Origin: an uncultured Gemmatimonadales bacterium
Lineage (GTDB): Bacteria; Gemmatimonadota; Gemmatimonadetes; Gemmatimonadales; GWC2-71-9
NCBI GenBank assembly: GCA_963771275.1
Contig: CAVYSW010000003.1
Location: 257,037-321,036, forward strand
Length of the DNA: 64,000 bases
Direction of reading: 5' to 3'
Part shown: positions 15,822-43,372 of the stretch, piece after piece
Position numbering within the stretch: position 1 is the stretch's first letter
Layout: each line of letters starts with the position of its first letter
Translations under genes and position numbers: made by a program
Notes under the pieces: model-generated
The model's input: only the letters and a program-made list of their open reading frames with translations
Database searches by the model: none
What the model was told of the DNA's origin: nothing

Positions 15822-15825
15822 GGGA

Positions 15826-16974: not shown

Positions 16975-18072
16975 CTACTTGGTGGGGTTCGCCGTGTACC
17001 CGAGGTACGTGAGCACGAGCATGTAGGCGATGATCGCGACCGCGATCCCGGTAAACAGCCGGCTCGGCCGGCCGCGCGCCGTCCGGCGATCGACAAACGG
17101 CACCAGCAGCAGGAACACGGCGGCGAGCCCGAAGCCCATGATGCCCACCGCCTCGCCCTCGAAGAACAGAATGTGCGCCGGCAGGTACTTCAACGTCTGG
17201 AACATGAACATGAAGTACCACTCCGGCCTGATCCCCGCGGGGGCCGACGCGAACGGATCGGCTTTGGTGCCCAGCTCCGCCGGCAGATAGGCCGCGAGCG
17301 CCGCCAGGATCGCCAGCGCGGTCAGCCACCCGACGAGATCCCGCAACAGGAAATTCGGGAAGAACGGCATCACCCGCTTCGGGCCGCCCTCCTGCTGCAC
17401 GCGCGGCGGCACGCTCATGCCGTGCTTCTGGACGAGGTAGAGGTGCAGGCCGACCAGCACGAGGGTCGTCGCGGGAAGCAGCGCCACATGGATCGCGTAG
17501 AACCGCGTCAGCGTGGCCCCGGTGACGTCGTCTCCTCCGCGCAGCACCCGGAGCAGGAACTCCCCGACCACCGGGACGACGCCGATGATCTGGGTCCCGA
17601 CCCGCGTGGCGAAGTAGGCCAGCTCGTTCCACGGGAGCAGGTATCCCGTGAACCCGAAGGTCATGGCGAGCCCGAGCAGGGCCACCCCGGACATCCAGGT
17701 CAGCTCCCGCGGCTTGGCGTACGACCGCAGCAAGAGCACGCTGAACAGATGCAGGAACAGCGTGAAGATCAGCAGGTTGGCGGCCCAGGCGTGAATCGAC
17801 CGAATGAGCCAGCCGAACGGGACCTCGGCCATGAGAAACTGGACCGACTCGTAGGCCCCTTCCGCACTCGGCCGGTAGTAGATCAGCAGCAGCGCACCCG
17901 TGGACAGCTGGACGATGAACAGAAACAGCGTCATGCCGCCCAGGTAGTACCAGATGGTGTGCCGGTGGATCGGCACGTCCTTCTTCTTTGCCAGCGCGCC
18001 GACCGCCGCCAGCCCCAGCCGCTCGTCAAGCCAGGTCCAGACAGCCATCCAGGCACCGCGGAGTCGCGTCAT
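16975..18072 (-). CDS. cytochrome b (b6-type heme-ligand spacing, fused b6 plus subunit IV-like)
   Basis: The His pairs are [15 protein letters not shown] and [16 protein letters not shown], and the Qo motif RPEWY is present. I prefer ATG 18072 over the TTG 18078 used by the track. Confidence 0.9.
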
Positions 18073-18074
18073 CG

Positions 18075-18530
18075 TCAACTCCCCTTGCTCACGACGATCT
18101 CGTCACCCCGCACATTCACGGTGAAGGCCTCGAGCGGCTTCGGGGGCGGGCCCGCGACATTCGTCCCGTTGAGATCGAAGTGGCCGTTGTGACAGGCACA
18201 CCACAGCTGCTGCAGATCGGGTCGGTACTGCACGATGCACCCGAGATGGGTGCAGGTCGCGGAAAACGCCCGCAGGTCTCCGGTGGGGGTTCGCACGATG
18301 ATCCCGGGGCGGTTGCCGAACTTGAAGATCCTGCCCGTGTCGGGCGCCAGGTCGTCGGGCTTGATCGGGAGCGTCACGCTGGATGCCGCCGACTCGCCGC
18401 TGCGCGGCGGGACGAGGTAGCGTCCGGCCGGGTACACGATCGCGAGCAGCAGCCCGCCGACGCTCGTGCCAAGCAGCCAGTTGACGAACCGCCTGCGGGG
18501 CGGTGCGGGGGCCTGCGACGACTGAGCCAT
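18075..18530 (-). CDS. Rieske 2Fe-2S subunit
   Basis: From ATG 18530 (AGGAGG upstream) the product is 151 aa. It has the Tat motif [11 protein letters not shown] and the ligand boxes CTHLGC and CACHNG. Confidence 0.9.
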
Positions 18531-18568
18531 GCCTGCTTCCTCCTGGGGCGTGCCCCGGTCCGGACGGG

Positions 18569-19849
18569 TCATCGGCCGGCGCTCTCCAACTGACGGATCT
18601 TGAGGACGAGGCCGGTGATCAGCAGGACGATGATGCCCGTGGATACACCGAGCCCGATACGGCGGAACCGGAGGTCGCTCAGCGCAGCATGGCCCCACTT
18701 GACGGCGGTCGCCGTGATCACCAAGCCCTCGTCGACGTGTCGCGACACGGAGTCGGTCACGAACGTGTGCACCGCGTTCCGCGCCTGCAGGAGGGTCGTC
18801 CGCGCGTTGCGGAGATCGAACTGCGGCTGGCTGACCTCCATGCCCGCATGCTCGGCGGCGGCCAGCAGCGAGTCGGCCGTCGCATAGTCGGTGCGCAGCG
18901 AGTCGATCGCGCTCCGCATCGCCGCTGCCGTGATCCCGCCACCCGCCCCCGCGACGTGGCAGCGACCGCAGACCGACCCCGCCGCGACCCCGAGCATCGT
19001 GTCGGACGTGACCGTGATCGCGTGATTGCCGTGGCAGCCGACGCAGCCGGGCACACCGAGCTTCGTGAAGATCGACGAGTGCGGGCTCGCCGCGAAGTAG
19101 TCCGCCATCACGGAGTGGCACTGCCCGCACACGTTGCCCACCCAGCCGACGCCGGGGGGGGCCGCCCCATGATTGCCGTGGCAGTCGTTGCACGTCGGGG
19201 CCGAGCGGTCGCCGTCCACGGACAGGGCGTGCCAGTGCACGCTCTGCTCGTAGCGCTCCAGCTGATCGGTCGGGATCCCGTAGTCACGCATGTAGGTCGT
19301 ATCGGCATGACACGCGCCGCACGTGCGGGCGACGTTCACGGGGTTCACGCTGGAGCGGGGGTCATTGGGCGGGCGAATGCGATGCGCGGGGTGGCAGCTC
19401 ACACAGGTGGCGACTTTCCGATCCGCCATCCCGAGCAGCCGCTGGCCGTGGACCGACGTGGCGTATTCCGCCGCCTGGTCCACGCGCAAGGCCGGATTGT
19501 ACTGCCGCATGAACGCCGCGTCCGAGTGACACCGGCCGCAGACCTGGATGACCTGGCGCCCCACGGGCCGACCCACGAACCCCTTGGCGGGGTCCATCGC
19601 GCCGAACCCGGCCACGGTGGGATCGCCGCCGTGGCAATCCGCGCAGCTGAAGCCGCGGGCCGCGTGAATGTCCTCCTGGAACGCCTTGACCGGCGCGGAA
19701 AGCCGCTCGACGGTCAGCATCTCATGACATGACCGACAGCTGTCTTCGCCACCACCCTGCGCCGCGGCGGGTCGCACCGCAACCACCGTCCCGATCGTCA
19801 CCAGCAGCGGGAGCCACGGGGCTCCCCGCCCGGCATACGCGTTGTTCAT
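18569..19849 (-). CDS. nonaheme cytochrome c with C-terminal TM anchor
   Basis: From ATG 19849 the product is 426 aa. It has a signal peptide, 9 CxxCH motifs, a helical region and the C-terminal TM helix IGLGVSTGIIVLLITGLVL. Confidence 0.85.
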   Translation of the reverse strand: MNNAYAGRGAPWLPLLVTIGTVVAVRPAAAQGGGEDSCRSCHEMLTVERLSAPVKAFQEDIHAARGFSCADCHGGDPTVAGFGAMDPAKGFVGRPVGRQVIQVCGRCHSDAAFMRQYNPALRVDQAAEYATSVHGQRLLGMADRKVATCVSCHPAHRIRPPNDPRSSVNPVNVARTCGACHADTTYMRDYGIPTDQLERYEQSVHWHALSVDGDRSAPTCNDCHGNHGAAPPGVGWVGNVCGQCHSVMADYFAASPHSSIFTKLGVPGCVGCHGNHAITVTSDTMLGVAAGSVCGRCHVAGAGGGITAAAMRSAIDSLRTDYATADSLLAAAEHAGMEVSQPQFDLRNARTTLLQARNAVHTFVTDSVSRHVDEGLVITATAVKWGHAALSDLRFRRIGLGVSTGIIVLLITGLVLKIRQLESAGR

Positions 19850-26856: not shown

Positions 26857-28472
26857 CGCGCACCTCCCTCGGGAATCCGCAGGATTGCCGGCGGCAGGGT
26901 CGACCGGTCGGCGCTCGTGCCGAGCCCCAGGCGGATCCCGGCACTGAGCCGCACCTGGTTCCAGGAGAACTGCGCGGCATCGGGATACTCCGTTCCGCCG
27001 ACGACCACCTTGCGGTCGCCCCCGCGCGCCTCATCGTAGTACAGCACGCCACCGAACACCCGGAGCTCGTCGAGCACCTGCGCATCGACGTCGAGGGCGT
27101 ATTGCCAGACGCTCGCGTCGTTGAAGCGCAGCTCGAGCGCGCGCTGCAGGTTGGCGATGCTGCCGCGGACCGCCACCCGCGGGATCGGCCGCCAGAACAC
27201 GCTGCCGTCGATCCCCAGCGCCCCGGCGCCCGGGCCGGTCTCGATGTGGTAGTCCGCCGTCGCGATCAGATTCGCGGAGCGCATGTAGGTGGCCCCGAGA
27301 CTGCCGCGCCAGCCGGACGTCTCGATCGAAACCAACGGCGTTGCGGTCTCGGTGTTGGCGTACTCGTAGACCTCGCCCCGCGCTCGCACCTGCACGCGGT
27401 TCATCAGGTGCATGGTGAGCGACCCGAACGCCGCGTGGTACGGGACGGGACTGAACACGCCCCAGATGCTCCACGAGTCGAAGTGCGGCCGATACCGCCG
27501 GCCGCCCACCGCAGCCGTCGCCCCGGTCCCCGGAATCGCGACCGCGAGCTGGCCTTCGGCGCTGCCCCACTCGCCGAACACCAGGTCGTAGTCCGCGCCC
27601 CCGGACACGGTGACCCCCCGCCACGGGCGCAGCACCACGTCCGCGCCGAGCTGCTCCGACGCGACCCGGCTGGTGGTCCCCGACGGCCCCATGGCGTCCA
27701 TCTCGCGTTCGTACAGGACCGTGGCCTGCATCCACCGCAGGTTCCAGCCGACGTCGCCGCCGACCAGCACGCCGCGCTTGCTGGGACGAAACTCGTTCAG
27801 CGGATTGAGCAGGGAGTCGGTCACGCTCAGCAGGGCCCCGCGCGCCAGCGCCCACCCCCCGTACACCGCCGCGCTCACCTTGCCACTGAGCGGCCGCACA
27901 CGGACTCGGGCCCCGTCAAAGCCGGTGTATCCCAGGCGCGACGTTTCGATCAGGCGCCCACCCTGCGCCATCGCCAGGCCGCGCACATACTCGGCGTAGC
28001 CTTCGACGAGCTGCAGCGTGGGCTGGGTGGCCGGCCACGCGTCCGGATTGGCCAGGTCGGTCACCACGCGCGCGCGCGCCCGGGCGCTGAGCCCCGGAAC
28101 GCCGAAGTCCCACGCGGACAAATCGGCCGTCGTGACGAACGGCTGGCCCTGCTGCGCGGCGCCTGGCGTGTAGTAGCGACAATACGCGTCGCCGGTCGGG
28201 CAGGTCACCGCGTACCCATCCGCGGTCTGCAGGCCGCCCCCCGGTCCCAGCACGACGTCCGTGACCGGGACGCTGTCGAGCTGCCAGCCGCGATACTTCA
28301 CGGACTGGAATCGCGACTCGATGCGCACGCGGTACCCCTGGCCCCAGAGTGGAGCCGTCTGGAGCGCGAGCCCCACGAGCACCGCCAGCGCGAACACCCT
28401 GGACCGTCTCACCAGCCCTCCTCCGTGTGGGCAGCCCCGTCCGGCTGCCGGTTCCTCACCGATTCGCCTCAC
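26853..28472 (-). CDS. putative outer-membrane beta-barrel protein (porin-like)
   Basis: 539 aa. It has a signal peptide (RVFALAVLVGLALQTAPLWGQG), no TM helices and no CxxCH. Many short amphipathic strand-like segments are rich in G, Y, W and R (e.g. RVQVRARGEVYEY, WRGSLGATYMRSANLIATADYHIE). Confidence 0.5.
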   Translation of the reverse strand: MRRIGEEPAAGRGCPHGGGLVRRSRVFALAVLVGLALQTAPLWGQGYRVRIESRFQSVKYRGWQLDSVPVTDVVLGPGGGLQTADGYAVTCPTGDAYCRYYTPGAAQQGQPFVTTADLSAWDFGVPGLSARARARVVTDLANPDAWPATQPTLQLVEGYAEYVRGLAMAQGGRLIETSRLGYTGFDGARVRVRPLSGKVSAAVYGGWALARGALLSVTDSLLNPLNEFRPSKRGVLVGGDVGWNLRWMQATVLYEREMDAMGPSGTTSRVASEQLGADVVLRPWRGVTVSGGADYDLVFGEWGSAEGQLAVAIPGTGATAAVGGRRYRPHFDSWSIWGVFSPVPYHAAFGSLTMHLMNRVQVRARGEVYEYANTETATPLVSIETSGWRGSLGATYMRSANLIATADYHIETGPGAGALGIDGSVFWRPIPRVAVRGSIANLQRALELRFNDASVWQYALDVDAQVLDELRVFGGVLYYDEARGGDRKVVVGGTEYPDAAQFSWNQVRLSAGIRLGLGTSADRSTLPPAILRIPEGGAR

Positions 28473-28512
28473 GCGTTCCGCCGTGAGGGCTCGCTCCGCC
28501 CCGCGGCGCGGG

Positions 28513-31449: not shown

Positions 31450-31552
31450 CCCGTCCCCGAGCCCCATCAATGTCATACTCAATGCGCAGGATACCAATGA
31501 CTTGTGAGCTTTCCGGGTCCGGCTTCCAGGGCCCGAAGGAGTGTTCTTCAAG

Positions 31553-32512
31553 ATGCGTCCGCTCTCGCGCAGAGGGTTCCTCGAGAGAGGGGGGCGTGCG
31601 TTCGCCGGCCTTGCGGCGGCCGGGGCTGGCACCGGTGGGATTGCCCTGCTGGCGCAGCCAGCTGCCGCCGCACCCGCCTCTCTGGAGCGCCTCACCCAAC
31701 AGGCCTCCAAGCAGTGGGCCATGCTGTTCGACTCGACGCTGTGCGTCGGATGTCGTTCATGCGAAGTCGCCTGTAACAAGAAGAACGACCTCGGCCGCAC
31801 GCCCACCGAGATCTTCGAAGGACGGGACGCCCAGGACGCCCGTGCCTTAGCGCCGGACGTCTTCACCTACGTCACGTTCCATCAGTGGGAGGCCGATCCG
31901 TCGACGGCCGCCTTCGGCAAGGTGCAGTGCATGCACTGCATCGAGCCGGCCTGCGCGGCGAGTTGCCCGGTGGCCGCGCTGCACAAGACGCCGGAGGGTC
32001 CGGTCGTGTGGGACGGCAGTCTCTGTCTGGGCTGTCGCTACTGCATGATGGCGTGCCCCTTCCTCGTCCCCCGCTTCGAGTGGGAGTCACGCAACCCGCG
32101 CATCCGCAAGTGCGACATGTGCTGGGACCGGCAGATGGAGGGGAAGCCCCCCGCCTGCGTCGAGGCGTGTCCCACCAAGGCCCTCAAGGCCGGCACGCGG
32201 GAGGAGTTGCTGCAGGCCGCATACGACCGCATCAACGCCCGACCCCGGAAGTACGTGCACCACGTGTACGGGGAGCACGAGGCGGGCGGCACCAACTTCC
32301 TGCACATCGCGGGGCGCCCGTTCGACGAGCTCGGCTACCGGCGCAACCTGCCGCTGCGTTCCTATCGCGAGTATACCAGGCCCGCGATGGCCACGATCCC
32401 GTACGTGCTCGGCGGCCTCGGGCTGGCCCTGGGGGCCGTCCGCTGGGTGGTCGTCCGTCGGCAGCAGGTCGCCCGCGGGCAGGCCGGGACCGGGGAGGGC
32501 ACCGCGCCATGA
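31553..32512 (+). CDS. Tat-exported 4Fe-4S ferredoxin-type subunit (HybA/NrfC/DsrO-like) with C-terminal TM
   Basis: MRPLSRRGFLERGG is a Tat motif. The cluster motifs are CVGCRSCEVAC, CMHCIEPACAASCP, CLGCRYCMMACP and CDMC..CVEACP. A C-terminal helix is IPYVLGGLGLALGAV. Confidence 0.85.
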   Translation: MRPLSRRGFLERGGRAFAGLAAAGAGTGGIALLAQPAAAAPASLERLTQQASKQWAMLFDSTLCVGCRSCEVACNKKNDLGRTPTEIFEGRDAQDARALAPDVFTYVTFHQWEADPSTAAFGKVQCMHCIEPACAASCPVAALHKTPEGPVVWDGSLCLGCRYCMMACPFLVPRFEWESRNPRIRKCDMCWDRQMEGKPPACVEACPTKALKAGTREELLQAAYDRINARPRKYVHHVYGEHEAGGTNFLHIAGRPFDELGYRRNLPLRSYREYTRPAMATIPYVLGGLGLALGAVRWVVVRRQQVARGQAGTGEGTAP

Positions 32513-33852
32513 AACCAGCCAATCTGCTGCGGATCCCGGTGTCAGGCGGGATGGCGACGCTGGTCGTGCTCGGCTGCGTGGGCCTGATGCTCATCGCCTA
32601 CCGGTTTGCCGTCGGCCTGGGCCCGGTGACCAACCTCAGTGACGGCTATCCGTGGGGGTTCTGGATCGGGATCGATGTGCTCGTGGGGATCGCGCTCGCC
32701 GCTGGCGGGTTCGTGATGGCGGGGCTCGTGCACATCTTCGGCGGCCACCGATTCCACGCGCTCACCCGGCCGGCGATCCTCACGGCGTTCCTGGGTTACC
32801 TGCTGTTCATTTTCGCGCTCATGGTGGACCTGGGACGCCCGTGGAACATCTGGCGGGCCTTAATCTCGTGGAACCACTACTCGCCGATGTTCGAGGTGGC
32901 GATGTGCGTGATGTTCTACACGTTCGTGCTGTTCCTGGAGTTCCTGCCCGCGGTGTTCGAGCGGCTGGGGCTCGAGCGTGCGCACCGAGCGTGGCGGGAG
33001 GTGTCGCCGTTTCTCGTCATCACGACCCTCACGCTGTTCGTCTTCGCCATGACCGACAGCCTGCGCTGGACGGTCGCCATCTTCGGCATCCTCGCGGCCT
33101 GGGAGGCGCTGATGCGCCTGCGCGTGGCACCGCGCGACCACCAGATGCCGGTGCTGCTCATCATGGCGGGGATCATGCTCTCCACGTTGCACCAATCGAG
33201 CCTGGGGACCCTGTTCCTCATCACCGACAAGCTGGGGCCCCTGTGGTATACGCCGATCCTCCCCTTGCTCTTCTTCCTGTCGGCCGTGATGGTCGGGCCG
33301 GCGATGGTGATGGTGGAAGCCATGCTCACCGCGCGGGTGCGACGCGAGCGGCCGGAGCTGGAGCTGCTCACCCAGCTGGGCCGGGCCATGCCCTACCTGC
33401 TGGGGGCGTACCTGGTGCTCCGGGTGGGCGACATGCTGATGCGCGGGGTGGTGCTGCAGGTGATGACGGCCTCTGGTGCGAGCGCGTGGTGGTGGCTCGA
33501 GGTCGGACTCCTGTTGACCGCCATGGCCCTGTTTGGGACCGCCGAGGTCCGGGCCAGGGAACGTGGACTCTTCCTGGCGGCGCTGGCCACCGTGGCGGCC
33601 GTGATCGTGCACCGCACTGGAGTCGCCGTGGTGGGCCTGTCCGTCCCGGAATACGGGCGCTATGTCCCGAAGTGGTCGGAAGTCTTGATCACGATCGGCA
33701 TCGTATCGCTCGGGCTCCTCGGGTTCCGGGCGGCGATCGCGTTCCTGCCCATCTACCACGACGAGAAAGACCGACACCTTGCGCCCGCCGAGGCGTCCGC
33801 CCGGCAGGCGGCTCAACCGCTCCCCATCGCGGCCGCGGAAGCGGCGCGCTGA
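32509..33852 (+). CDS. NrfD/PsrC/HybB-family quinone-interacting membrane subunit
   Basis: ATG 32509 (ATGA overlap), 447 aa, polytopic: GYPWGFWIGIDVLVGIALAAGGF.. Confidence 0.8.
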   Translation: MKPANLLRIPVSGGMATLVVLGCVGLMLIAYRFAVGLGPVTNLSDGYPWGFWIGIDVLVGIALAAGGFVMAGLVHIFGGHRFHALTRPAILTAFLGYLLFIFALMVDLGRPWNIWRALISWNHYSPMFEVAMCVMFYTFVLFLEFLPAVFERLGLERAHRAWREVSPFLVITTLTLFVFAMTDSLRWTVAIFGILAAWEALMRLRVAPRDHQMPVLLIMAGIMLSTLHQSSLGTLFLITDKLGPLWYTPILPLLFFLSAVMVGPAMVMVEAMLTARVRRERPELELLTQLGRAMPYLLGAYLVLRVGDMLMRGVVLQVMTASGASAWWWLEVGLLLTAMALFGTAEVRARERGLFLAALATVAAVIVHRTGVAVVGLSVPEYGRYVPKWSEVLITIGIVSLGLLGFRAAIAFLPIYHDEKDRHLAPAEASARQAAQPLPIAAAEAAR

Positions 33853-34521: not shown

Positions 34522-36453
34522 TCAGGCCCCGCGATCTCCGGGCGGCGGCGGCGCGCCGGTTTCCTCGTCGTACCACTTGGCGTGGTGCTCGCGCACCGCC
34601 CGCTTGCTGATCTTCCCGGTCAGCCAGGTCCAGCTCATCGGGTACTCCTCCGGATGGAAGATCACGAAGAAGAAGTGCCACACGATGATGGCGAGCGTCG
34701 CGAGCCACGCTTCGTAGTAGTGAATCGTCTGCGCCGCCGGGATCAGGAACGAGGGGAGGAACCTGGCCGCTACCGTCGGGAACCAGAGCACCAGCCCCGT
34801 CACGATCATGATGATCGTGCCCCAGATGAGCGCCCAGTACTCGGCCTTCTGCGAGTAGTCGTAGCGCCCGAACTGCGCTTTCTCCGTGCTGCGCCACGTG
34901 TAGAACCGCAGGTTCAGGACCAGGTCCTTGAGATCGCCCCACGTGGGCAGGATCGCACGGAACTCCTTCTTGCCGCGCCGCGTGAAGAAGACGTAGTACG
35001 CGTGGCTCAGCCCAACCAGGATCAGGATGACCGCAGCAACTCGGTGCACGTTGAGCCGGACCGGCTCGGTCAGTCCCACGGAAGCCAGCCAACGCACCCA
35101 CCAGGCGTCCGGGAAGCGCAGCGCGAATCCCGTGATGACCAGCAGGATGAAGGCGACGGTGAGGGCCAGGTGCTGCACGATCTGCACACGGTCGAATCGG
35201 ACCATCATCTCGGCGGTCGCTTCCTCCTTGCGTCGCTGCATCATGAAGAAGTTCATGATGACCAGGTTGTGCAGCACCATCCCGCCGAGGAGCCCGATAA
35301 TCAGCACGACATAGATGCTCCGGATCACGCGATTCACCGGGTTGGCGCTGATCGACGCCTTCTCGTGCGTGTAGCTCGCCGCGAAGCCCGCGTCCGCATT
35401 GGCGTGGCACTGGCGGCACGTGCTTACGACGTTGGCCGGACTGATGGTGGACAGGGAATCACTCGCCGGCAGGATCGAGTGGACGCCGTGGCAGCTGACG
35501 CACGTCGCCGCCCGCGCGTAGTTCCGCCTGACGGCCCAGCCGTGGTAGCTGTCCGCGTAGGAGCCGACGACGCCGCCCTGCAGGTTGTACTTCGCGACGA
35601 TCACCGGATCGTTGTGGCACTGCCCGCAGGTCTCGGTCGCGATGTGCGCCGCGAAGGTCTTGGCGTCGGGATTGCGCGGCGACAGAATGTGATGCTCGCC
35701 GTGACAGCTCGTGCACGTCGGCGCGTCGGTGACGCCGGCCTGCAGCGCCCGGCCGTGAATCGAGCCGTCGTACTGGAGCTCGATGTCGGGGTGGCACTGG
35801 CCGCACGTCGCCGCCACGTTGCGCGGGTTGATCCGCGACGTCGGATCCGCCGCGCCGAGGATGTCGTGGACGCCGTGGCAGTCCGCGCAGGAGGCCGCCG
35901 ACGCGACGCCGCGCCCCGTGCCCTGCCCGTGCACCGATTGGGCATAGTCCGTGAACGACTGCGGCAGCTTCACGATCTGGTCCGTGAGCAGGCCTGCCGT
36001 GCCGTGACACGTGGCACAGGTCCCCGGCAGGCGGACTTTGTGCGTCGGTGACCGCGGGTCGCTGCTGGCCAGCACGCCGTGGGCACCGTGACAGCTCACG
36101 CAGGTCGGCGCACGGGGGTTGCCGCGCGCCAGCGCGTAGCCGTGCAGGCTCTTGGCATACTTCGCCCCGACGTCCGCGTGGCAGCCGCTGCAGGCCAGCG
36201 GCTTCGCGTCCGGGGGGTGCGGGAAGGTCGTCATCGCCTGATGGCACATGCTGCACCGGACCCCGGCCGCCCCATGCACCGAGCCGTCGAGGCTGGCCTG
36301 CGCCACGACGAGGAGCGCGGAGTCCGGCTTCCCCTTGAAGAACCCCGGCTCCCCGTGACACATGAGGCAGTTGTCCTTCTCCTGGGCGGCTGCCACGCCC
36401 GCAACGATCAGCAGCGCCGTCGCGATCGGCAGCGCCCGCAGTCTGCTCCGCAT
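34522..36453 (-). CDS. 11-heme cytochrome c fused to a cytochrome b-type membrane domain (CbcL-like, second copy)
   Basis: From ATG 36453 (GGAGGAG upstream) the product is 643 aa with 11 CxxCH motifs. The membrane domain (IVQHLALTVAFILLVITGFALRF..) is colinear with the C-terminus of 28513-31317. Confidence 0.85.
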   Translation of the reverse strand: MRSRLRALPIATALLIVAGVAAAQEKDNCLMCHGEPGFFKGKPDSALLVVAQASLDGSVHGAAGVRCSMCHQAMTTFPHPPDAKPLACSGCHADVGAKYAKSLHGYALARGNPRAPTCVSCHGAHGVLASSDPRSPTHKVRLPGTCATCHGTAGLLTDQIVKLPQSFTDYAQSVHGQGTGRGVASAASCADCHGVHDILGAADPTSRINPRNVAATCGQCHPDIELQYDGSIHGRALQAGVTDAPTCTSCHGEHHILSPRNPDAKTFAAHIATETCGQCHNDPVIVAKYNLQGGVVGSYADSYHGWAVRRNYARAATCVSCHGVHSILPASDSLSTISPANVVSTCRQCHANADAGFAASYTHEKASISANPVNRVIRSIYVVLIIGLLGGMVLHNLVIMNFFMMQRRKEEATAEMMVRFDRVQIVQHLALTVAFILLVITGFALRFPDAWWVRWLASVGLTEPVRLNVHRVAAVILILVGLSHAYYVFFTRRGKKEFRAILPTWGDLKDLVLNLRFYTWRSTEKAQFGRYDYSQKAEYWALIWGTIIMIVTGLVLWFPTVAARFLPSFLIPAAQTIHYYEAWLATLAIIVWHFFFVIFHPEEYPMSWTWLTGKISKRAVREHHAKWYDEETGAPPPPGDRGA

Positions 36454-36548: not shown

Positions 36549-38570
36549 CTACCCTCCCGCGCCGCTGAGCGGCGTCATCTGGTGGCACTGGTCGCACGCC
36601 ACCGGCGCGTTGTGCTGCACGCGATCCGTGTGGCACACCGTGCAGATCTGGCGCGACCACTCGGTGAGGCCGGCGACCTTGTCGCCATGGCAGCCCGTAC
36701 AGGGACGGTGGGCGATGGCCGCCTGCATGTGCTTGGCCTTGACCCCCTGGTCCGCGCGGTGGCACGCGAGGCAGGTGGCCGCCGGCAGGTGGTGCGCGCC
36801 GTGACAGTTGTCGCAGTTGAGATCCGCCGCGCGCATCGCGGGCGCCTGGTGACACACGGTGCAGGCGAACCCGATCGCCACGTGCGCCGGGTGCGGAAAG
36901 TCGCCCGCCGGCCGCGGGATCACGCCGGCCGGCACCGCGTTGGACCCGGTGTGGCAGTGCAGGCAGGTCGCCGGCTCCGCGGCGCGGTGATGACAGCCCT
37001 GGCAGTCCGCGCTGGAGCGCAGCGTGATCTTGCCGTGGTCGTCGAGCGGCGTGTGACAGGCGGTGCACGGGAGGCCGGCGCCCAGGTGCGGCTCGTGCGC
37101 GAAGCGCGCGCCCTGAAAGACGCCCGCCTGACGCTCGACGGCGAGGTGACACTGGAGGCAGGCGCTGCGGTCGAGGGCGGGACCGAGATCCACGCGCCCG
37201 ACGTCGAACGGGAGTCCGCCCGCCGCCACCGCCCGGCGGGTCAGGTCCACCGCGGCGTGCAGCAGCCGATCGGCGTACCCCACGTTGTGCGCGCCGCGGC
37301 CGACGCGCACGAGCTCGACGTTCTCCCGCGCGAGCCCCAGCAGGCTGTCCGCCGCCCTGCGGCCCGCCGCCGTGCCCGCGGCGCGCACCGCTTCGGCGCC
37401 GCGCACAACCCGCTCGACCCGCGCGAGGCGCCGCGTCATTTCCTCCTGCCAGCTGGGCAGGATGTCCGCGTAGCGCGTCCCGTGGCAGGCCATGCAGGAC
37501 GCCGCTCCCGCGACCTGCACGTTCTCGTGTCCTCGCGTCCGCCGGTTCAGCTCGTGGCAACTCTTGCACGAGACCTGCGCGCGGAACATCGCGCTGGGCA
37601 GGGACTCCGCCCCGTGCCCGCCGACGCCCGCGAGCAGCCGCTGCTGCGCCGTGTGCACGCCCTGATGGCACGATGCACAGTCAAGGGACTCGGTGCCCGT
37701 CGCCATCCCGGGCGGCATGACGACGCGATGCTCGATGGGGTCGTGGCACTGCGTGCACTCGACCTTGTGCTCCGTGATGTGCTTGCGGTGCAGCAGCGAC
37801 GTATTGCCGAACTCCTGCAGCCGCGCCGGCTCGTTGTGGCAGTTGAAGCAGCGCGACTGGTCCACGCCGCCCGTGCCCTGCACCACCTGGCTGTGGCAGG
37901 AGAGACAGGAGACCAGGTCCCGCACGAACTGCGGGTGGTCGATCACCACGCCGCCCGCTTGCTCCAGCCGCGGCGGGGCGGGATGGCACCCGATGCAGCC
38001 CGCCACCGGCTCGGCGGTCCGCCGCTCCTTGAAGTGGCAGAGGAAGCAGGTCTCCTCGGTGACCGCGACGTGGGCGCCCTGCACGATCTGCGAATGGCAG
38101 CTGGTGCATCGCAGCTGCTTGCCGCGCCGCAACTCGCCCAGGTGGTCGGCGTGACTGAACCGGACCCCCTTGAAATCGACCTCCGACGACAGCTTCGCCT
38201 CGACGTGACAGCCCGAGCGCAGACACGCGGCGTCGTCGATCTCGGCCCAGGGCTTCTTCATGCCGTACTGCCTGGTGATGTACTTCACGACCTGGTTGGC
38301 CGCCTGGAACTTGCCCATCGCCTCCGCCTTGATGCCCGGCGCATAGTGGCAGAGGATGCACTTCACGTCCTTGTGGCTGGACGTCTTCCAGGACTCGTAG
38401 TACGGCACCATGTTGTGGCAGTTCTTGCAGAAGCTTGGCTGGCCGCTGTACTCGACGAACCCCACCGTGCCGGCCGTCAGCAGGATCACGCCCGCGATGG
38501 TCAGCTGCACGAGCAGCCGCAGCCACCGCCGCCGTCGCCGGGGCGCGGGCACCGGCGTCCCGCTCGTCAT
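36549..38570 (-). CDS. NapC/NirT/NrfH-like membrane-anchored multiheme cytochrome, 21 CxxCH plus 1 CxxxxCH
   Basis: From ATG 38570 (ATGA overlap) the product is 673 aa. An N-terminal TM helix is followed by FCKNCHNMVPYYESWKTSSHKDVKCILCH, typical of the NapC/NirT family. Confidence 0.85.
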   Translation of the reverse strand: MTSGTPVPAPRRRRRWLRLLVQLTIAGVILLTAGTVGFVEYSGQPSFCKNCHNMVPYYESWKTSSHKDVKCILCHYAPGIKAEAMGKFQAANQVVKYITRQYGMKKPWAEIDDAACLRSGCHVEAKLSSEVDFKGVRFSHADHLGELRRGKQLRCTSCHSQIVQGAHVAVTEETCFLCHFKERRTAEPVAGCIGCHPAPPRLEQAGGVVIDHPQFVRDLVSCLSCHSQVVQGTGGVDQSRCFNCHNEPARLQEFGNTSLLHRKHITEHKVECTQCHDPIEHRVVMPPGMATGTESLDCASCHQGVHTAQQRLLAGVGGHGAESLPSAMFRAQVSCKSCHELNRRTRGHENVQVAGAASCMACHGTRYADILPSWQEEMTRRLARVERVVRGAEAVRAAGTAAGRRAADSLLGLARENVELVRVGRGAHNVGYADRLLHAAVDLTRRAVAAGGLPFDVGRVDLGPALDRSACLQCHLAVERQAGVFQGARFAHEPHLGAGLPCTACHTPLDDHGKITLRSSADCQGCHHRAAEPATCLHCHTGSNAVPAGVIPRPAGDFPHPAHVAIGFACTVCHQAPAMRAADLNCDNCHGAHHLPAATCLACHRADQGVKAKHMQAAIAHRPCTGCHGDKVAGLTEWSRQICTVCHTDRVQHNAPVACDQCHQMTPLSGAGG

Positions 38571-39808
38571 CCGCGTGCCCCGTGGTCCCGGCGGCGATCG
38601 GCGATCCGGATCCAGGCGAGCGCCACCAGCGCGAGCGCAAGGAACCACACCGGCACGAGCAGCAGCTTGTGCTCCCACTCGTTCTCGCCGGCCGCCGCGG
38701 CCGCTTCGTCGATCGTACGGGTGGCGGAGGCGACGCGCAGCTCGAGATCCTCCAGCGTCGCGAGATCGAGATCGTGCTGCACCAGCACGACCTGGCGATA
38801 CCAAGTGCGGGCGTCCTCATAGCGGAGCCGGCTGTCGGTCACATCCCGGCCTTTGTGGATCAGCACGTCGATGGCGCGCTGCGCCTCGAGCAGGTCATTC
38901 GCCGCGCGCGCGATCCGCGCCTCGAGCTCCACTCCCAGGGCCGCCGGCGCGCTCCCCGCCGGATGGCACTTGAGGCAGGTCTCGGCGATCGAGTCCTGCG
39001 GCACGCGCTCGGTGCCGTGGTTGCTGTGGCAGCCGACGCACCCGGCGAGCCGGCCTTGCTTGGCCGGCGCGCCGTGCGGCCCGTCGAAGAACGCCTGGCG
39101 CACGAGCGTGTGGCAGCGCCCGCACACATCGGCGATCTGGGTGACGCCCGGCGGCAGCGCCGAATGCGAGCCGTGGCAGCCGACGCAGGTGGGGGCGGCG
39201 AAGTTCTCGTCCTGAAACACCGCGACGCCGTGCGCGCTCGAGACATACTGCGTGAACTGATCCGTCGGCAGCCCGTACTTGCCCATCAGCTTCGCGTCCG
39301 CGTGGCAGCGCGCGCACAGCACCGGGATGTTCGCCGGGTAGGAGTTGCTGCGCGCGTCCGTCGCCCGGCGGATCAGGTGCGATTCGTGACAGTCGGTGCA
39401 GGTCGGCGCATCGGGATCACCCCGCTCGAGCAGCTGCCCGTGGCGACTGGCCCGCAGGCCGGCCAGCTGATCGTACGGCAGGCCGAACTGCCGCATCTTG
39501 TTCGGATCGGCGTGGCAGGAAGCGCACAACGTCGCGATCTGCAGTTTGCTGGGCCGCCCGAGGAAGTGCCCCGCGTGTGCGCCGGGCAGCTCCTGCGCGG
39601 CCGGATTGCCGCCGTGACAGTTGTGGCACTGGATGCCCCGCTCGGCATGGACCCCGGACAGGAAGGCGCGGCGGTGCTCGGCGTGGCACACCACGCAGGA
39701 ATACGAGCTGTCGATCGCAAGCGACGGGGCCTGTGCCGCCAGCGCCCGGAAGGGCCCCACCAGCAGGCCGACCCCCAGCGCCGCACGCCCGACGAGCCGT
39801 GGCGTCAT
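38567..39808 (-). CDS. nonaheme cytochrome c with C-terminal TM anchor (paralog of 18569-19849)
   Basis: From ATG 39808 (ATGA overlap) the product is 413 aa with 9 CxxCH motifs. It is colinear with the other nonaheme (CHNCHGGNP vs CADCHGGDP; APTCVGCHGSHSALPPGV vs APTCNDCHGNHGAAPPGV). The C-terminal TM helix is LLLVPVWFLALALVALAWI. Confidence 0.85.
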   Translation of the reverse strand: MTPRLVGRAALGVGLLVGPFRALAAQAPSLAIDSSYSCVVCHAEHRRAFLSGVHAERGIQCHNCHGGNPAAQELPGAHAGHFLGRPSKLQIATLCASCHADPNKMRQFGLPYDQLAGLRASRHGQLLERGDPDAPTCTDCHESHLIRRATDARSNSYPANIPVLCARCHADAKLMGKYGLPTDQFTQYVSSAHGVAVFQDENFAAPTCVGCHGSHSALPPGVTQIADVCGRCHTLVRQAFFDGPHGAPAKQGRLAGCVGCHSNHGTERVPQDSIAETCLKCHPAGSAPAALGVELEARIARAANDLLEAQRAIDVLIHKGRDVTDSRLRYEDARTWYRQVVLVQHDLDLATLEDLELRVASATRTIDEAAAAAGENEWEHKLLLVPVWFLALALVALAWIRIADRRRDHGARG

Positions 39809-41058
39809 CGGGACCTCCCCGCGGTGGTCGAATCGGTGGAGTCCGGGTGCAGCGGCGCGATCCCTCCCGCGTCCGCGCCGAACGGGACGGCCCGGCCCGG
39901 GGTCTCCATCGGCGTCGCATGGGGCACCGGTCCCTGCGACTGCAGCGTGCGGCCGACGCCCCACGTCAGCAGCGTCACGGCGAAGAACGCAATGCCGGCC
40001 GCGAGCACCAGGGGGCGCTCGCGCAGCCGCCGCTCAGGACCGCGGTCGAACAGCGGCAGCACCGCGAGCACGGCGCCGAGCAGGACGAACAGCGCCACGC
40101 CCCACCCACCCAGGAAGTGCCCGAGCGTGCGTCCGATGTCGACAATCACCCAGGTGGAGATCAGGTCGCGGGGCAACGCCCCAGGGTCCGCGGGCGGCCC
40201 GACGGGACGGGTGAACCAGGTCGCGAGCGTGATGACCACGGCGAGTGTGACCGCGGCGACCATCAGCGACCGCATCAGGTGCACCGGATAGAAGCGCACG
40301 CCGGGCTCGGACGTCTCGCGTCCGGGCGGCGGGGTGATGCCGTGCCGCCGGATCAGGGTGAAGTGGAGCCCCAGCAGGACGAAGAGCAGCCAGGGCAGCA
40401 GCACCACGTGGAGCGCGAACTGCCGGCTCAGCGTGGAGCCGGACACGAGCGAGTCGCCGCGCAGCAGCTCCGTGGCGAGACCGCCCACCACCGGGATCGC
40501 GGACAGCAGCTCGAGGCCTTCCGAGAAGGTCCAGTACGCCCACTGATCCCAGGGCAGCAGGTAGCCCGACGCCCCAAACGCCAGGACGACGCCGAACAGC
40601 CCGACCCCGATCAGCCAGTTGGTCTCGCGCGGCGGCTTGTACGCCCCGTCGAAGAACACGCGGGCGAGGTGCGCCAGCAGCAGGACGACGAGGAGGCTGG
40701 CGCACCAGACGTGCAGTCCCCGAATCAGCCAGCCGAACGGCGCCTGCGACTGGATGTACTGGACGCTGGCGTAGGCCTCCTGGGCCGAGGGGCGGTAGTA
40801 GAACACCAGCAGGACCCCGGTCGCCACCTGCACCATCAGCAGCAGGTAGGCGATGCTCCCGAACGCGTGCCGCCAGGTGATGTGGGCCGGGAGGCGGTAG
40901 TTGAGCGCCTTGCGGAGCGACACGTCGATGCGCGAGCGGCCGTCGATCGGCCCGTAGAGCAGTCCGAGAAACCGGGCGATGCCGAGCAGGCTGGGGTCGG
41001 TCGACTGCCGGAGGTCCTCCCAGAACTGCGCGAGCCAGCCGCGGATCCGTCCGGTCAT
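39805..41058 (-). CDS. cytochrome b homolog lacking the PEWY Qo motif
   Basis: From ATG 41058 (GAAGGAG upstream) the product is 417 aa. The His pairs HVWCASLLVVLLLAH and HVVLLPWLLFVLLGLH are retained. The position aligned to RPEWYF of copy 1 reads ISTWVI. Confidence 0.85.
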   Translation of the reverse strand: MTGRIRGWLAQFWEDLRQSTDPSLLGIARFLGLLYGPIDGRSRIDVSLRKALNYRLPAHITWRHAFGSIAYLLLMVQVATGVLLVFYYRPSAQEAYASVQYIQSQAPFGWLIRGLHVWCASLLVVLLLAHLARVFFDGAYKPPRETNWLIGVGLFGVVLAFGASGYLLPWDQWAYWTFSEGLELLSAIPVVGGLATELLRGDSLVSGSTLSRQFALHVVLLPWLLFVLLGLHFTLIRRHGITPPPGRETSEPGVRFYPVHLMRSLMVAAVTLAVVITLATWFTRPVGPPADPGALPRDLISTWVIVDIGRTLGHFLGGWGVALFVLLGAVLAVLPLFDRGPERRLRERPLVLAAGIAFFAVTLLTWGVGRTLQSQGPVPHATPMETPGRAVPFGADAGGIAPLHPDSTDSTTAGRSR

Positions 41059-41510
41059 GGCGCCTCCTTCACGTAGACCACGTCTCCGTGCACAAAGACA
41101 CCGAACCGGCGGAGCGGCACCGTCGTGAGGCCGGTCACCACGTTGCCGTGCAGGTCGTACACGAGGTGGCTGCACGGGGAGACGATCTGCAGCCCCTGCT
41201 CGTCCCATTTCAGCAGGCAGCCATCGCTGGGGGCGGTCCCCTCCACCGCGTAAAAGGTGGCCGCGGACCGCCGCACGACCAGCACCACGCGCGCACCCCA
41301 GTTCACCACCCGGCCCGTGCCGACGGGGAAATCGGCGACCCGCGCCACGCGGATCGTGGGCTGGAGCTCCGGGATGTGGAGGCGCTGCGCGGGGAGCAGA
41401 TACAGGGCGATCACGAGCAGCACCGCGAACGCCGTGACCGCGAGGACGCCGGCGAGCAGCAGCCGGTTCAGCTCGGAGCCGGATTCCCGTACGTGCACCG
41501 TGTCAGGCAT
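41055..41510 (-). CDS. Rieske-fold protein lacking 2Fe-2S ligands
   Basis: From ATG 41510 the product is 151 aa, the same length as the true Rieske, with an N-terminal TM helix. Box I reads APSDGC instead of CTHLGC, and box II reads SPCSHL instead of CACHNG. Confidence 0.75.
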   Translation of the reverse strand: MPDTVHVRESGSELNRLLLAGVLAVTAFAVLLVIALYLLPAQRLHIPELQPTIRVARVADFPVGTGRVVNWGARVVLVVRRSAATFYAVEGTAPSDGCLLKWDEQGLQIVSPCSHLVYDLHGNVVTGLTTVPLRRFGVFVHGDVVYVKEAP

Positions 41511-41719
41511 GCTCGCCCTCCTCCCCCGCCGCGTCTCCATCGCGGCCCAGCCATGCCAGAAGCCCCACCACGGGCGGCTGCGCGGCCACGACTGCTCCAA
41601 ACGTGGCAGCCGGCTCCACCACCCGAAGGAGGGGAGCCGGCCGCCGCTTCAATCCACTGTCGTTCCGGGAGCCGGCGGGCCCGGGACTACCCGGACCCGC
41701 CGGGCTCCACTACCAACGA

Positions 41720-43372
41720 TCACCGCAGCTTCCTGAGGCCCGCGGGCGCCGTGAGCTGCTGGCTCAGGGTCACGGGCGGAGCCGGGACGTTGTAGTACGT
41801 CCTCAGATAGTCGATCGACGCAAGCAGCAGCGCCTCGAGCAGGAATGGGTTGTGCGCCCCCTGCCCGCTGGAGATATGGCCCGTGTTCGAGCCGCCGCTC
41901 GGCGACGTGCAGGTCTGCGACGCGCAGCTGTACTGCTCGGGGACCTTGAAGCTCAGCCAGGCGGGGCGCTCGCTGGTGGCCGCCAGCTGGGCGTTCCAGA
42001 TGGCGCCCTCGGCCGGTGTCAGCACGGAGTCATACAGGTTTATCTGCCGGCGCTCGTTGTTCGCAACGGCCTGCGCCAGGATCTCCGGCAGAACCCCGCG
42101 ATCCGTGGACTCCATGAGCGAATCGTTGTCCACGTCGGTCCACAGGGCGTCGGTCAGGGAGTTCATCCGGGCCCGCACCACCTGGAACGCCGTCCGCGCC
42201 GCGTCGGCGCTGCCGTGGCAGCCCGACACCGCACAGGAGCGGAAGTCGCGCTGGGAGTCCGGGCAGTCCGCGCCGGGGATCGGCTCGCCCGTGCTCTGAT
42301 TGATGCAGGGAACCGCCTGGAACGTGTGCCCCACGTAGTTCTTGACGAACGTGCTGTCCGCGGCGTTGATCGCGAACCCGGCGACGTGGCACGCGGCACA
42401 CTGCCGCGGATTCGCGGTGGTGTGCGAGCCCACGACCCGGTCGGTGTACGGCCAGTTGGGCGGCAGCCAGCCCGCTTCCTCGTCCATCACGATGGACCCC
42501 TGCGCGCCATGCGGGCCGCGACGGGTGATGCCGCTGGCGCCGGGCTCACCTTCACGCGAGTGGCAGCGCGCGCACAGCTGCTCCAGGCTCGACTCGTCGA
42601 GCGGGCGGCGGAGCTGACCCTCGTTGGTGGCGTCGTGCGGATCATGGCAGACGGCGCAGACGATCGGCTGGTAGTCGCCCGCGATGTCCTTCTCCAGGAA
42701 GACGGTGGGATCGCCGCCGGTCTGGCCCGAGGGACGTGGATCGAGCCCGCTCATCGCCACGCGAATCGCCGCGCGACCCTCGTGGCAGTTCATGCACGGA
42801 TCGCGCGAGCCTTCGGCGAGGTAGGCGTCTCCGCCGTAGCCGTGCCTGGATTGGCTCCACTCTTCGATAAACGGATGGTGCACGTCGGTGTGACACTCGC
42901 CGCAGCCGTTGGCGGAGTCGATCCCGACCGCGATCGCCGCGAGCGGTGCCACGACGCTGCCGCCGAACACGGACTCGACGTGGGCCAGGCCGGGGCCGTG
43001 GCAGCTCTCGCACTGCACGTCGAAGTAGGCGGTGTCCGCCACCTTGTTGTGCCCCGCCGCCGAGTCGACCGCGTTGCCGAGGTCACTCACCGTGTGGCAG
43101 CCCTCGCACATCGCGTCGGCGTGACCGGAGGCTTGGAGGTCCGCCCAGGCGCTGGCGTGCTTGGTCTGCACCCACGATGCCTGCATGTCGGCGTGGCAGT
43201 TGCCGCACGTGGTCTGCTTGTCGGCAGGTGTGTAGTAGCCGAGGTACCCCGCGGCCGCGTCCGGCGGGGGGTTGAATACGGGCGTTTCGACGTACTGGAT
43301 CTCGTGCTCCGTACAGGCGCCGAGCAGTACGACCAGCGCCGCCGCGCTCGTCCAACGAATCAGGCTCGTCAC
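41720..43372 (-). CDS. multiheme cytochrome c lipoprotein (8 CxxCH plus 1 CxxxxCH)
   Basis: GTG 43372 with AAGGAG upstream. The lipobox is VLLGAC. The product is 550 aa with a heme-free helical C-terminal region. The family (Otr/HAO-like vs other) cannot be resolved by eye. Confidence 0.8.
   Translation of the reverse strand: MTSLIRWTSAAALVVLLGACTEHEIQYVETPVFNPPPDAAAGYLGYYTPADKQTTCGNCHADMQASWVQTKHASAWADLQASGHADAMCEGCHTVSDLGNAVDSAAGHNKVADTAYFDVQCESCHGPGLAHVESVFGGSVVAPLAAIAVGIDSANGCGECHTDVHHPFIEEWSQSRHGYGGDAYLAEGSRDPCMNCHEGRAAIRVAMSGLDPRPSGQTGGDPTVFLEKDIAGDYQPIVCAVCHDPHDATNEGQLRRPLDESSLEQLCARCHSREGEPGASGITRRGPHGAQGSIVMDEEAGWLPPNWPYTDRVVGSHTTANPRQCAACHVAGFAINAADSTFVKNYVGHTFQAVPCINQSTGEPIPGADCPDSQRDFRSCAVSGCHGSADAARTAFQVVRARMNSLTDALWTDVDNDSLMESTDRGVLPEILAQAVANNERRQINLYDSVLTPAEGAIWNAQLAATSERPAWLSFKVPEQYSCASQTCTSPSGGSNTGHISSGQGAHNPFLLEALLLASIDYLRTYYNVPAPPVTLSQQLTAPAGLRKLR

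Follow-up and report, generated by a model that had tools for sequence, protein, structure and literature searches.

What can a cytochrome bc-type complex do once its Rieske subunit has lost the means of holding a 2Fe-2S cluster? The question is raised by a locus in a 64,000-nucleotide stretch of DNA from an uncultured Gemmatimonadales bacterium (NCBI GenBank assembly GCA_963771275.1; contig CAVYSW010000003.1, positions 257,037 to 321,036 of the forward strand), the whole of which we refer to as the window. It encodes two Rieske/cytochrome b pairs, a canonical one (R1 and B1) and a second one comprising a Rieske-fold protein (R2; 41055..41510, minus strand) without 2Fe-2S ligands and a cytochrome b (B2; 39805..41058, minus strand) with its haem histidines but no PEWY motif. 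Bc-type complexes are held to be defined by the Rieske cluster and unable to do without it. Cluster-less Rieske folds (NirD), atypical Qo motifs, and bc cores embedded among multihaem cytochromes are already known; what appears to be new here is a bc-type complex that keeps its Rieske subunit without the cluster ligands.

R2 begins at the ATG at 41510 and is 151 amino acids (aa) long. In place of the two cluster-binding boxes, C-x-H-x-G-C and C-x-C-H, it has APSDGC (former box I; 41217..41234, minus strand) and SPCSHL (former box II; 41163..41180, minus strand), which a first-pass annotation of this DNA, made from the letters alone, had read as replacements of the CTHLGC and CACHNG of R1. Both motifs were found at these positions, and the ligand register was obtained from three independent alignments, namely, a BLASTP alignment with R1 (26% identity; E = 2 × 10−12; ungapped through both boxes), a HMMER alignment with the solved Rieske domain of Chlorobaculum tepidum (Protein Data Bank [PDB] code 8hn2), and a profile alignment with PetC of the b6f complex. 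All three give the same register, in which the ligand positions are occupied by A93 and S95 (box I) and by S111 and S114 (box II), and the only two cysteines of the protein, C98 and C113, fall on the disulfide cysteines. Thus, comparison with solved and curated references places a Cys or His ligand at no cluster-binding position. The histidine of box II that the first-pass annotation had described as displaced by one residue (His115) was considered as a ligand and rejected, as it is Y, H, or F in homologues.

A search of 5.8 billion proteins recovered at least 199 relatives of R2, of which the best 120 (52 to 99% identity) were analysed. All four 2Fe-2S ligands, including the first Cys and the His of box I, are absent from every one of these 120 closest homologues, and Cys98 and Cys113 are invariant. 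The family sequence can be written as [SA]-P-x-D-G-C ... S-P-C-[ST]-[YHF]-[LV]-V-Y-D-L-H-G-N-V-V, and the family alignment has no invariant or nearly invariant histidine. When the R2 profile was run against a representative library of 1.8 billion proteins, the approximately 13 representative clusters scoring above 100 bits were all ligand-less, and the entries below about 93 bits were nearly all canonical Rieske proteins of the C-H-C-H type. The fold itself is recovered by several routes. The sole Pfam match of R2 is Rieske_2 (PF13806; 26.6 bits against a cutoff of 27), and profile searches of the PDB retrieved 8hn2 (E = 2.9 × 10−14). The AlphaFold2 model (mean predicted local distance difference test [pLDDT] score, 88.6) consists of a transmembrane (TM) helix at residues 9 to 38 and a Rieske beta domain. 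A Foldseek search with this model gave 8hn2_A as the top match (template-modelling score, 0.81; root mean square deviation, 1.3 Å), with the NirD structures 4aiv and 3c0d also among the matches. The TM anchor noted by the first-pass annotation is therefore seen in the model as well.

The loss of the ligands is accompanied by other changes in the same protein. Canonical Rieske proteins cross the membrane in the folded state via the twin-arginine translocation (Tat) pathway; a Tat-like motif ([ST]-R-R-x-F) is found in 17 of 18 R1 orthologues versus 1 of the 120 R2 homologues. Likewise, where R1 and 8hn2 have the Pro-loop that shields the cluster (GPxP), the R2 family has G-L-T-T. The loops that would have held the cluster are nevertheless the most conserved regions of R2, with a mean column conservation of 0.85 versus 0.58 for the TM helix, and 8 of the 18 invariant residues fall in positions 98 to 122. 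Because these loops are so conserved, the tip of R2 is likely to retain some role, which would most simply be docking.

Several variant Rieske proteins were encountered alongside this family. Some R2 homologues (P0243 and P0245) have an N-terminal CxxC...CxxC extension resembling a zinc ribbon, which is predicted to lie on the cytoplasmic side. A separate, partly degenerate group of bc-type Rieske proteins (P0269, P0277, P0296, P0384, and P0389; approximately 216 aa) has C-x-[YF] in box I, with the first His lost; P0269 belongs to what we term the CYCH group, and directly after its gene comes one for a cytochrome b (L077). Yet another protein, P0261, has a degenerate Rieske motif of the form C-R...C-D (CRCD), in which both histidines are lost. 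The contigs that carry P0261 and P0269 are short and show little of the gene neighbourhood.

B2 is a 417-aa fusion of a cytochrome b6-like and a subunit-IV-like region with seven predicted TM helices. It matches Pfam Cytochrome_B (PF00033) with 168 bits and Cytochrom_B_C (PF00032) with 18.1 bits against a cutoff of 20.7, helices E to G being predicted nonetheless. In profile searches, cytochrome b6 is matched end to end (E = 3.6 × 10−73; residues 4 to 214) and subunit IV more weakly (E = 9 × 10−11). The AlphaFold2 model (pLDDT, 81) retrieves the cytochromes b of bc1 and b6 complexes in Foldseek. The four haem ligands, His116 and His130 of helix B (40669..40713, minus strand) and His217 and His232 of helix D (40363..40410, minus strand; 14-residue spacing of the b6 type), are invariant in the 120 closest B2 homologues, the helix B pair also in a further alignment (A2). 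The first-pass annotation had called these histidines intact, and the motifs that contain them, HVWCASLL (40690-40713) and HVVLLPW (40390-40410), are present on the minus strand as expected.

The PEWY motif, on the other hand, is gone. An alignment of B2 with B1 (38% identity) places ISTWVI (40144-40161, minus strand) opposite RPEWYF, just as had been proposed, within a former PEWY site that reads I-S-T-W-V-I-V-D (40138..40161, minus strand). Across the B2 family this site is L-V-S-T-W-V-V-V-D, with W303 invariant in the main clade and S301 and D307 present in >90% of homologues. Its counterpart in a sister clade is ALGL or ILWF, and the replacement motif is therefore clade specific. B2 retains canonical sequence in its N-side loops and in the part of the Qo pocket that derives from b6 (GYLLPWDQWAYW); the haem-cn cysteine is absent from both B1 and B2. 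Identities calculated over the same 14 genomes show that the pattern of constraint in B2 is inverted relative to that in B1: the N-domain, C-domain, and ef-loop are 78, 81, and 93% identical in B1 versus 71, 63, and 69% identical in B2, where the N-side and haem-binding parts are best conserved. The first-pass annotation had taken both halves of the Qo site to have been lost together. This holds for the Rieske ligands and for PEWY; however, loss of PEWY is by itself no proof that the pocket is lost, the b6 half is intact, and S[A/G]WF variants of the motif exist in other cytochromes b (PMC5600118).

At their N terminus (residues 1 to 37), B2 and its family share an extension on the cytoplasmic side, about 35 residues long and marked by W13, D15, T20, D21, L25, and R29. 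This conserved stretch precedes the b6-like start and is not found in B1; a similar, longer N terminus is present in the b6 proteins of two of the ligand-bearing clusters described below (L075 and L076).

The genes that follow B2 encode multihaem cytochromes. D (38567..39808) is a 413-aa nonahaem c-type cytochrome with a signal peptide, nine CxxCH motifs, and a C-terminal membrane anchor, and is paralogous to up1, the c subunit encoded in the canonical operon (33% identity; E = 8 × 10−61). E (36549..38570) is a 673-aa cytochrome with 21 CxxCH motifs and a membrane-anchored N terminus of the NapC/NirT/NrfH type, in which the sequence CKNCHNM represents the CxxCHxM motif; this region matches Pfam Cytochrom_NNT and NCBIfam NrfH. 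F (34522..36453) is a 643-aa CbcL-like protein in which 11 CxxCH motifs are fused to a dihaem cytochrome b of the FdnI/Ni_hydr_CYTB type. Upstream of R2 is A (41720..43372), a 550-aa octahaem cytochrome with a lipoprotein-type signal. The genes for A, R2, B2, D, E, and F all lie in a single minus-strand run. The CxxCH motifs downstream of B2 (9 in D, 21 in E plus one CxxxxCH, and 11 in F) number 41 to 42, in keeping with the 42-haem chain of the first-pass annotation. ATGA overlaps at the R2/B2, B2/D, and D/E junctions indicate translational coupling, the first of them having likewise been predicted. The G+C content of the window is approximately 70%, and that at third codon positions (GC3) is 0.91 in R2 and 0.94 in B2, which shows both frames to be real; the antisense open reading frames at 39577-41076 and 41088-41795 (plus strand) were rejected as shadow frames on their G+C pattern at first and third codon positions. 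A promoter scan found no sigma-70-like sites, and the terminator-like matches were weak and all inside genes.

The combination is conserved well beyond the window. A survey with one genome per GTDB species yielded 62 loci, every one from the record of a metagenome-assembled genome (MAG): 60 are labelled as Gemmatimonadota or one of its orders or families, one as "uncultured bacterium," and one lies on a 7-kb contig binned as Steroidobacteraceae. Counting only loci on sufficiently long contigs, R2 is followed by B2 in 55 of 55, by D in 50 of 50, and by E in 40 of 40. The motif content of the cytochromes is similarly stable, with nine CxxCH motifs in all 49 D orthologues, 21 in 36 of 39 E orthologues, and CxxCHxM in 38 of the latter 39. 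A more divergent clade of ligand-less proteins (143 aa), the one with ALGL or ILWF in place of PEWY, shows the same R-b-D-E order. Thus, R2-B2-D-E is an invariant, translationally coupled four-gene core. Its surroundings are more variable: there are zero to three copies of A upstream of R2 in most loci, a CbcL-like protein is found downstream in most, F comes after E in many, and the canonical up1-R1-B1 operon often directly adjoins the R2 locus.

Ratios of nonsynonymous to synonymous substitution (dN/dS; Nei-Gojobori method) were calculated for the window and two collinear metagenome contigs, between which dS is 0.26 to 0.55. They are 0.12 to 0.19 for R2 and 0.13 to 0.18 for B2, beside 0.13 to 0.16 for D, E, and F, 0.13 to 0.17 for glpK, 0.15 to 0.18 for ECH, and 0.08 to 0.09 for rho. 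R2 and B2 are under purifying selection, with dN/dS values like those of neighbouring housekeeping genes. The comparison with orthologues that the first-pass annotation had proposed as a check thus gave the same substitutions in all 120 homologues and a dN/dS well below 1.

The canonical operon in the same window (16975..19849, minus strand) provides the comparator. It consists of the nonahaem cytochrome up1 (18569-19849), the Rieske protein R1 (18075-18530; CTHLGC at 18237-18254, CACH, and a Tat motif), and the cytochrome b B1 (16975-18078; PEWY at 17215-17226). The equal length of the two Rieske proteins asserted by the first-pass annotation is only partly borne out: R2 has 151 aa, but R1 has 151 aa only if it starts at MAQSSQ, the upstream ATG giving 165 aa. 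In this operon, the membrane-anchored nonahaem cytochrome (18569-19849) stands in place of cytochrome c1 or f. Upstream of up1 is a 4-haem class-I cytochrome c (19846-21039, minus strand), and downstream of the operon are CcmF-like cytochrome maturation genes (13785-15935).

Where, then, did R2 and B2 come from? A recent duplication of R1/B1 within the window is unsupported: R1 orthologues have the lowest Rieske scores against the R2 profile (45 to 53 bits), 136 other entries of the global library score higher (54 to 94 bits; nearly all canonical Rieske proteins), and the architecture matches that of E-containing clusters. We examined the genomic context of three of the closest ligand-bearing R2 relatives, which are located on a 46% G+C unassigned metagenome contig that carries the four-gene core only (L073; 250-4425), in an Armatimonadota UBA10988 MAG (L075; 4337-14242), and on a further unassigned metagenome contig (L076; 4491-15928). 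All three show a Rieske/cytochrome b/nonahaem/NrfH-type polyhaem architecture. In L073, this takes the form of a Rieske protein with CTHLRC/CPCH and the RR motif, a cytochrome b with AVWY, a nonahaem cytochrome with a C-terminal TM helix, and an 18-haem NrfH-type cytochrome. The gene order in L075 and L076 begins with a multihaem cytochrome, a porin (Porin_4, with a faint MtrB_PioB match in L076), and an MtrC-like cytochrome; it continues with a bc core made up of a Rieske protein (CTHLGC/CPCH; RR motif), a b6 with CMGG (haem-cn), and a subunit IV with PEWY. A nonahaem cytochrome, a 24- to 26-haem NrfH-type cytochrome, and further cytochromes then follow, and L076 ends with an FdnI-type b.

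The Gemmatimonadota module shares with these intact clusters its gene order, a D-like cytochrome (nine CxxCH motifs and a C-terminal TM helix), and an E-like cytochrome (CxxCHxM N terminus), D being 35% identical to an intact-cluster counterpart (E = 2 × 10−74) and E 35 to 38% identical to its counterparts (E = 1 × 10−119 to 1 × 10−129). It differs in that they have CTHxxC/CPCH and the RR motif, together with PEWY and CMGG in L075 and L076 and AVWY in L073, and in that their cytochrome b is split in L075 and L076 and B2 is fused. Since the closest ligand-bearing relatives share this architecture and match D and E, the most fitting view of the module is that it derives, by loss of cofactors, from a complex type already present in several phyla, and is not a broken copy of R1/B1. 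The second pair thus probably did not arise just by degeneration of a duplicated R1/B1, as the comparison made in the first-pass annotation might suggest. The intact cross-phylum Rieske/b6/subunit IV/nonahaem/NrfH architecture itself appears to be undescribed in the literature searched.

With canonical bc1 and b6f complexes, R1/B1 included, the R2/B2 pair has in common the Rieske fold, N-terminal anchor, and two disulfide-position cysteines of R2; the four haem histidines, 14-residue helix D spacing, and predicted subunit-IV-like helices E to G of B2; and the adjacency and translational coupling of the two genes. It departs from them in the missing 2Fe-2S ligands and Tat motif of R2, in GLTT for GPxP, in STWV for PEWY, in the missing haem-cn cysteine (as in B1), and in its 9-haem and 21-haem partners in place of c1 or f. 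NirD-type small subunits of assimilatory nitrite reductase (PF13806) are Rieske folds without a cluster. R2 resembles them in this respect, as reflected in its Rieske_2 and Foldseek matches; however, NirD is soluble and cytoplasmic with NirB as its partner, whereas R2 is predicted to be membrane anchored, is coupled to a cytochrome b, and is nearest to a bc-type Rieske domain (8hn2), its gene neighbours being cytochromes and not nirB.

Among described gene clusters, the extHIJKLMNOPQS cluster of Geobacter (GSU2930-2940; "Cbc6") encodes the porin-like ExtI, the multihaem cytochromes ExtKL/M/N/S, a Rieske protein (ExtO), a cytochrome b (ExtP), and the membrane protein ExtQ (PMC5877670 and PMC2825233). 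Like the locus studied here, it sets a bc-type core among several multihaem cytochromes and a porin-like protein; unlike it, ExtO is annotated as an iron-sulfur Rieske protein, and neither the gene order nor the cytochrome families are the same. On the NCBIfam ExtP model, B2 reaches 213 bits against a cutoff of 290, and the NCBIfam search gave no ExtO match for R2 and no match for ExtQ; B2 is accordingly an analogue of ExtP, as judged from its sequence, and not a member of that family. Atypical cytochrome b lineages offer another comparison. Subfamily L has S[A/G]WF at the Qo motif, the long cytochromes b of clade G' occur in "large conserved operons of unknown function" (both PMC5600118), a PDWF-FeS branch has no Rieske protein, and a Pyrobaculum cytochrome b is short of one haem ligand (both PMC4122944). 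In these lineages, then, neither the Qo motif nor the Rieske partner of a cytochrome b is fixed, but none has been described in which the Rieske subunit is kept minus its cluster ligands. More generally, neither a bc-type complex with a cluster-less Rieske subunit nor the present Gemmatimonadota operon turned up in a literature search in which subscription journals were thinly covered. A survey of marine Gemmatimonadota that includes some of the same MAGs reports only generic "DFE_0461-0465 / Cyc2-like" iron-gene hits and never mentions Rieske proteins (PMC11316326).

In public databases, R2 homologues are named "Rieske (2Fe-2S) protein" (NCBI) or "nitrite reductase/ring-hydroxylating ferredoxin subunit" (IMG), and B2 homologues are entered as "cytochrome bc complex cytochrome b subunit" (annotated homologues include MGD2134959.1 and MGD2217068.1). 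These names overstate the cofactor content and function of the proteins. Metabolic reconstructions of Gemmatimonadota MAGs that rely on them will over-count complex III and miss what is likely to be an extracellular electron transfer module.

Under the established mechanism of bc1 and b6f complexes, the first electron from quinol oxidation at Qo passes to the Rieske cluster. Given this mechanism and the absence of the cluster ligands, the canonical bifurcating Qo reaction cannot run, and we infer, in agreement with the first-pass annotation, that bifurcating quinol oxidation, and hence a Q cycle, is excluded for the R2/B2 complex. The complex probably links quinones to the multihaem cytochrome chain by a non-Q-cycle route. 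In the reading that we favour, R2, B2, D, and E would be functional subunits of one inner-membrane complex. In the Gemmatimonadota lineage, its Rieske protein would have lost the four ligands, the Tat signal, and the Pro-loop, and the subunit-IV half of its Qo site would have lost PEWY. R2 would stay on as a redox-inert structural subunit whose conserved tip docks on the cytochrome b. B2, with both b haems, would serve as a transmembrane wire between a cytoplasmic-side quinone site and the periplasmic c-haem network of D and E, and the NrfH-type site of E could be a second point of contact with quinol. Alongside the CbcL-like proteins and the candidate porin-cytochrome module (see below), the complex would connect the quinone pool with redox partners outside the cell or in the periplasm, and the porin-cytochrome context points to electron exchange of this kind.

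The role of B2 as a wire is plausible in light of a design parallel, since an FdnI-type dihaem b fused to a multihaem c occurs twice in the same region, in F and in a 934-aa protein. Zacharoff et al. are said to have described in 2016 how CbcL of Geobacter unites a periplasmic multihaem c, a two-haem transmembrane b, and a quinone site. B2 shares this proposed working principle with dihaem cytochromes b of the CbcL/FdnI/HydC type, and proteins of this type are encoded in the cluster itself (F and the 934-aa protein); however, the fold families are unrelated (PF01292 versus PF00033), and the likeness extends to the possible mode of working only. Taken as a whole, from a structural R2 through a two-haem wire to an extracellular or periplasmic link, this reading is in our judgment evenly balanced between right and wrong. 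The broader proposal built on it falls somewhat short of that and is offered tentatively: the complex may represent a new class of inner-membrane quinone-to-multihaem oxidoreductase for extracellular electron exchange, one that has given up the Q cycle, in which the Rieske protein is a cofactor-less structural element and the cytochrome b either acts as a redox-loop wire or partners an NrfH-type haem that replaces the iron-sulfur cluster.

Several points weigh against the wire. The proposal is weakest at the gap between haem bL and the c haems. In canonical complexes, Qo quinol and the Rieske cluster are the sole means by which bL exchanges electrons with the periplasmic chain. The haem histidines may persist solely for folding. 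Since the operon has two other candidate quinone modules in E and F, contact between B2 and quinone may not be required. Because S-T-W-V-x-V-D is fixed in the main clade and the b6 part of the pocket has kept its canonical sequence, there is also room for a remodelled, active quinol site on the P side. Finally, every carrier is an uncultured MAG. In one rival account, R2 and B2 are irrelevant to redox chemistry and, with b haems bound for folding only, anchor and organise the D/E module, quinol chemistry being left to the NrfH-type domain of E, the CbcL-like proteins, or both. The NrfH hallmark CxxCHxM in 38 of 39 E orthologues, the disappearance of the Rieske cluster as the only known link from Qo to a c haem, the relaxed subunit-IV half of B2 (63% identity versus 81% in B1), and the variation of the former PEWY motif between clades all fit such a scaffold. 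We nevertheless consider it unlikely, though it deserves to be kept in mind: the intact relatives combine an NrfH-type E with a complete Rieske/b6/PEWY set, so that E alone does not make the bc part redundant, the N-domain, N-side loops, and four histidines of B2 are strongly conserved, and dN/dS is as low for R2 and B2 as for the haem proteins.

In a second rival account, the Qo site of B2 is remodelled but still bifurcating, with quinol oxidised on the P side, the first electron passing to a c haem of D or E and the second to bL in a Q-cycle-like mechanism free of iron-sulfur clusters. Both b haems, which serve the Q cycle in canonical complexes, are kept; conservation extends to the b6 part of the pocket; the main clade has S301, W303, and D307 fixed, D307 being a possible proton acceptor; and Ser-x-Trp motifs occur in subfamily L (PMC5600118). 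But the retained R2 head with its conserved tip would fill the very docking crater that a haem domain needs, the motif reads ALGL or ILWF in the sister clade, and no precedent was found in the literature searched, so that we regard this mechanism as improbable. We know of no bifurcating Qo site that works without an iron-sulfur cluster. It is far less probable still that R2 binds an Fe-S cluster or another metal through residues missed in the alignments. Cys98, Cys113, His115, and His121 do lie close together in the R2 of the window, but His115 is Y, H, or F and His121 varies across homologues, no histidine is invariant or nearly so, three independent alignments concur, and R2 lacks the Tat signal that a cofactor-bearing protein would need to be exported in the folded state. 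As for decay of a duplicated pair, the loss of the catalytic motifs from both subunits and Pfam scores below the cutoffs for Rieske and Cytochrom_B_C might suggest it, and yet the frames are intact (GC3, 0.91 to 0.94), dN/dS is 0.12 to 0.19, and the 62 species-level loci show invariant synteny and ATGA coupling. Pseudogenisation is refuted and has next to no probability left. The earlier argument against random decay has thus gained in force, resting now on substitutions shared by the whole family, low dN/dS, the loss of the Tat motif and Pro-loop, and the invariant four-gene core.

A conserved complex that holds a Rieske protein without its cluster would mean that the structural role of this subunit is separable from electron transfer and that the cytochrome b scaffold can be reused for chemistry other than the Q cycle. 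Intact and cluster-less versions of one operon provide a defined system for studying the evolution of the Qo site. If the new oxidoreductase class is real, they would form a natural before-and-after pair for the contribution of the Rieske cluster and PEWY, and this in an abundant, mostly uncultured phylum of soils and sediments.

The cytochrome run is part of a wider island. On the minus strand beyond F lie genes for the CbcL-like 934-aa protein (28513-31317; 19 CxxCH motifs and an FdnI-type b), a 539-aa protein (26853-28472) that is a candidate outer-membrane barrel, and a 269-aa 9-haem cytochrome (26047-26856) with an MtrC/MtrF-domain match. The 539-aa protein has no Pfam or NCBIfam match, and the barrel idea comes only from its context, namely, the adjoining cytochrome with an MtrC domain and the presence of a porin in the intact clusters. 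Homologues of this trio (26047-31317) come directly after E in about 20 other Gemmatimonadota loci. The trio probably comprises further members of the same super-cluster, and to judge from its sequences it looks like a candidate porin-cytochrome conduit.

Other genes in and around such loci also suggest redox functions. At 31541-33852 (plus strand), a Tat-signal HmcB/HybA-like 4Fe-4S protein (288 bits on HmcB, below the cutoff) is followed by an NrfD-like membrane protein (32509-33852), and this pair, which is conserved beside F in L001, L067, and L070, is a candidate for another quinone-interacting module in the island. In a Gemmatimonadaceae MAG (L003/L050; 1-9474), the R2-B2-D-E core, here with an E of 1,098 aa, is divergently oriented beside a NiFe uptake hydrogenase and hyp genes. 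In another MAG (L071; 494-4300), it lies near an operon for a molybdenum-bispyranopterin guanine dinucleotide (Mo-bisPGD) protein, an iron-sulfur protein, and an NrfD protein (Psr/Ttr-like). These hydrogenase and Psr/Ttr-like neighbours hint at possible redox partners of the complex.

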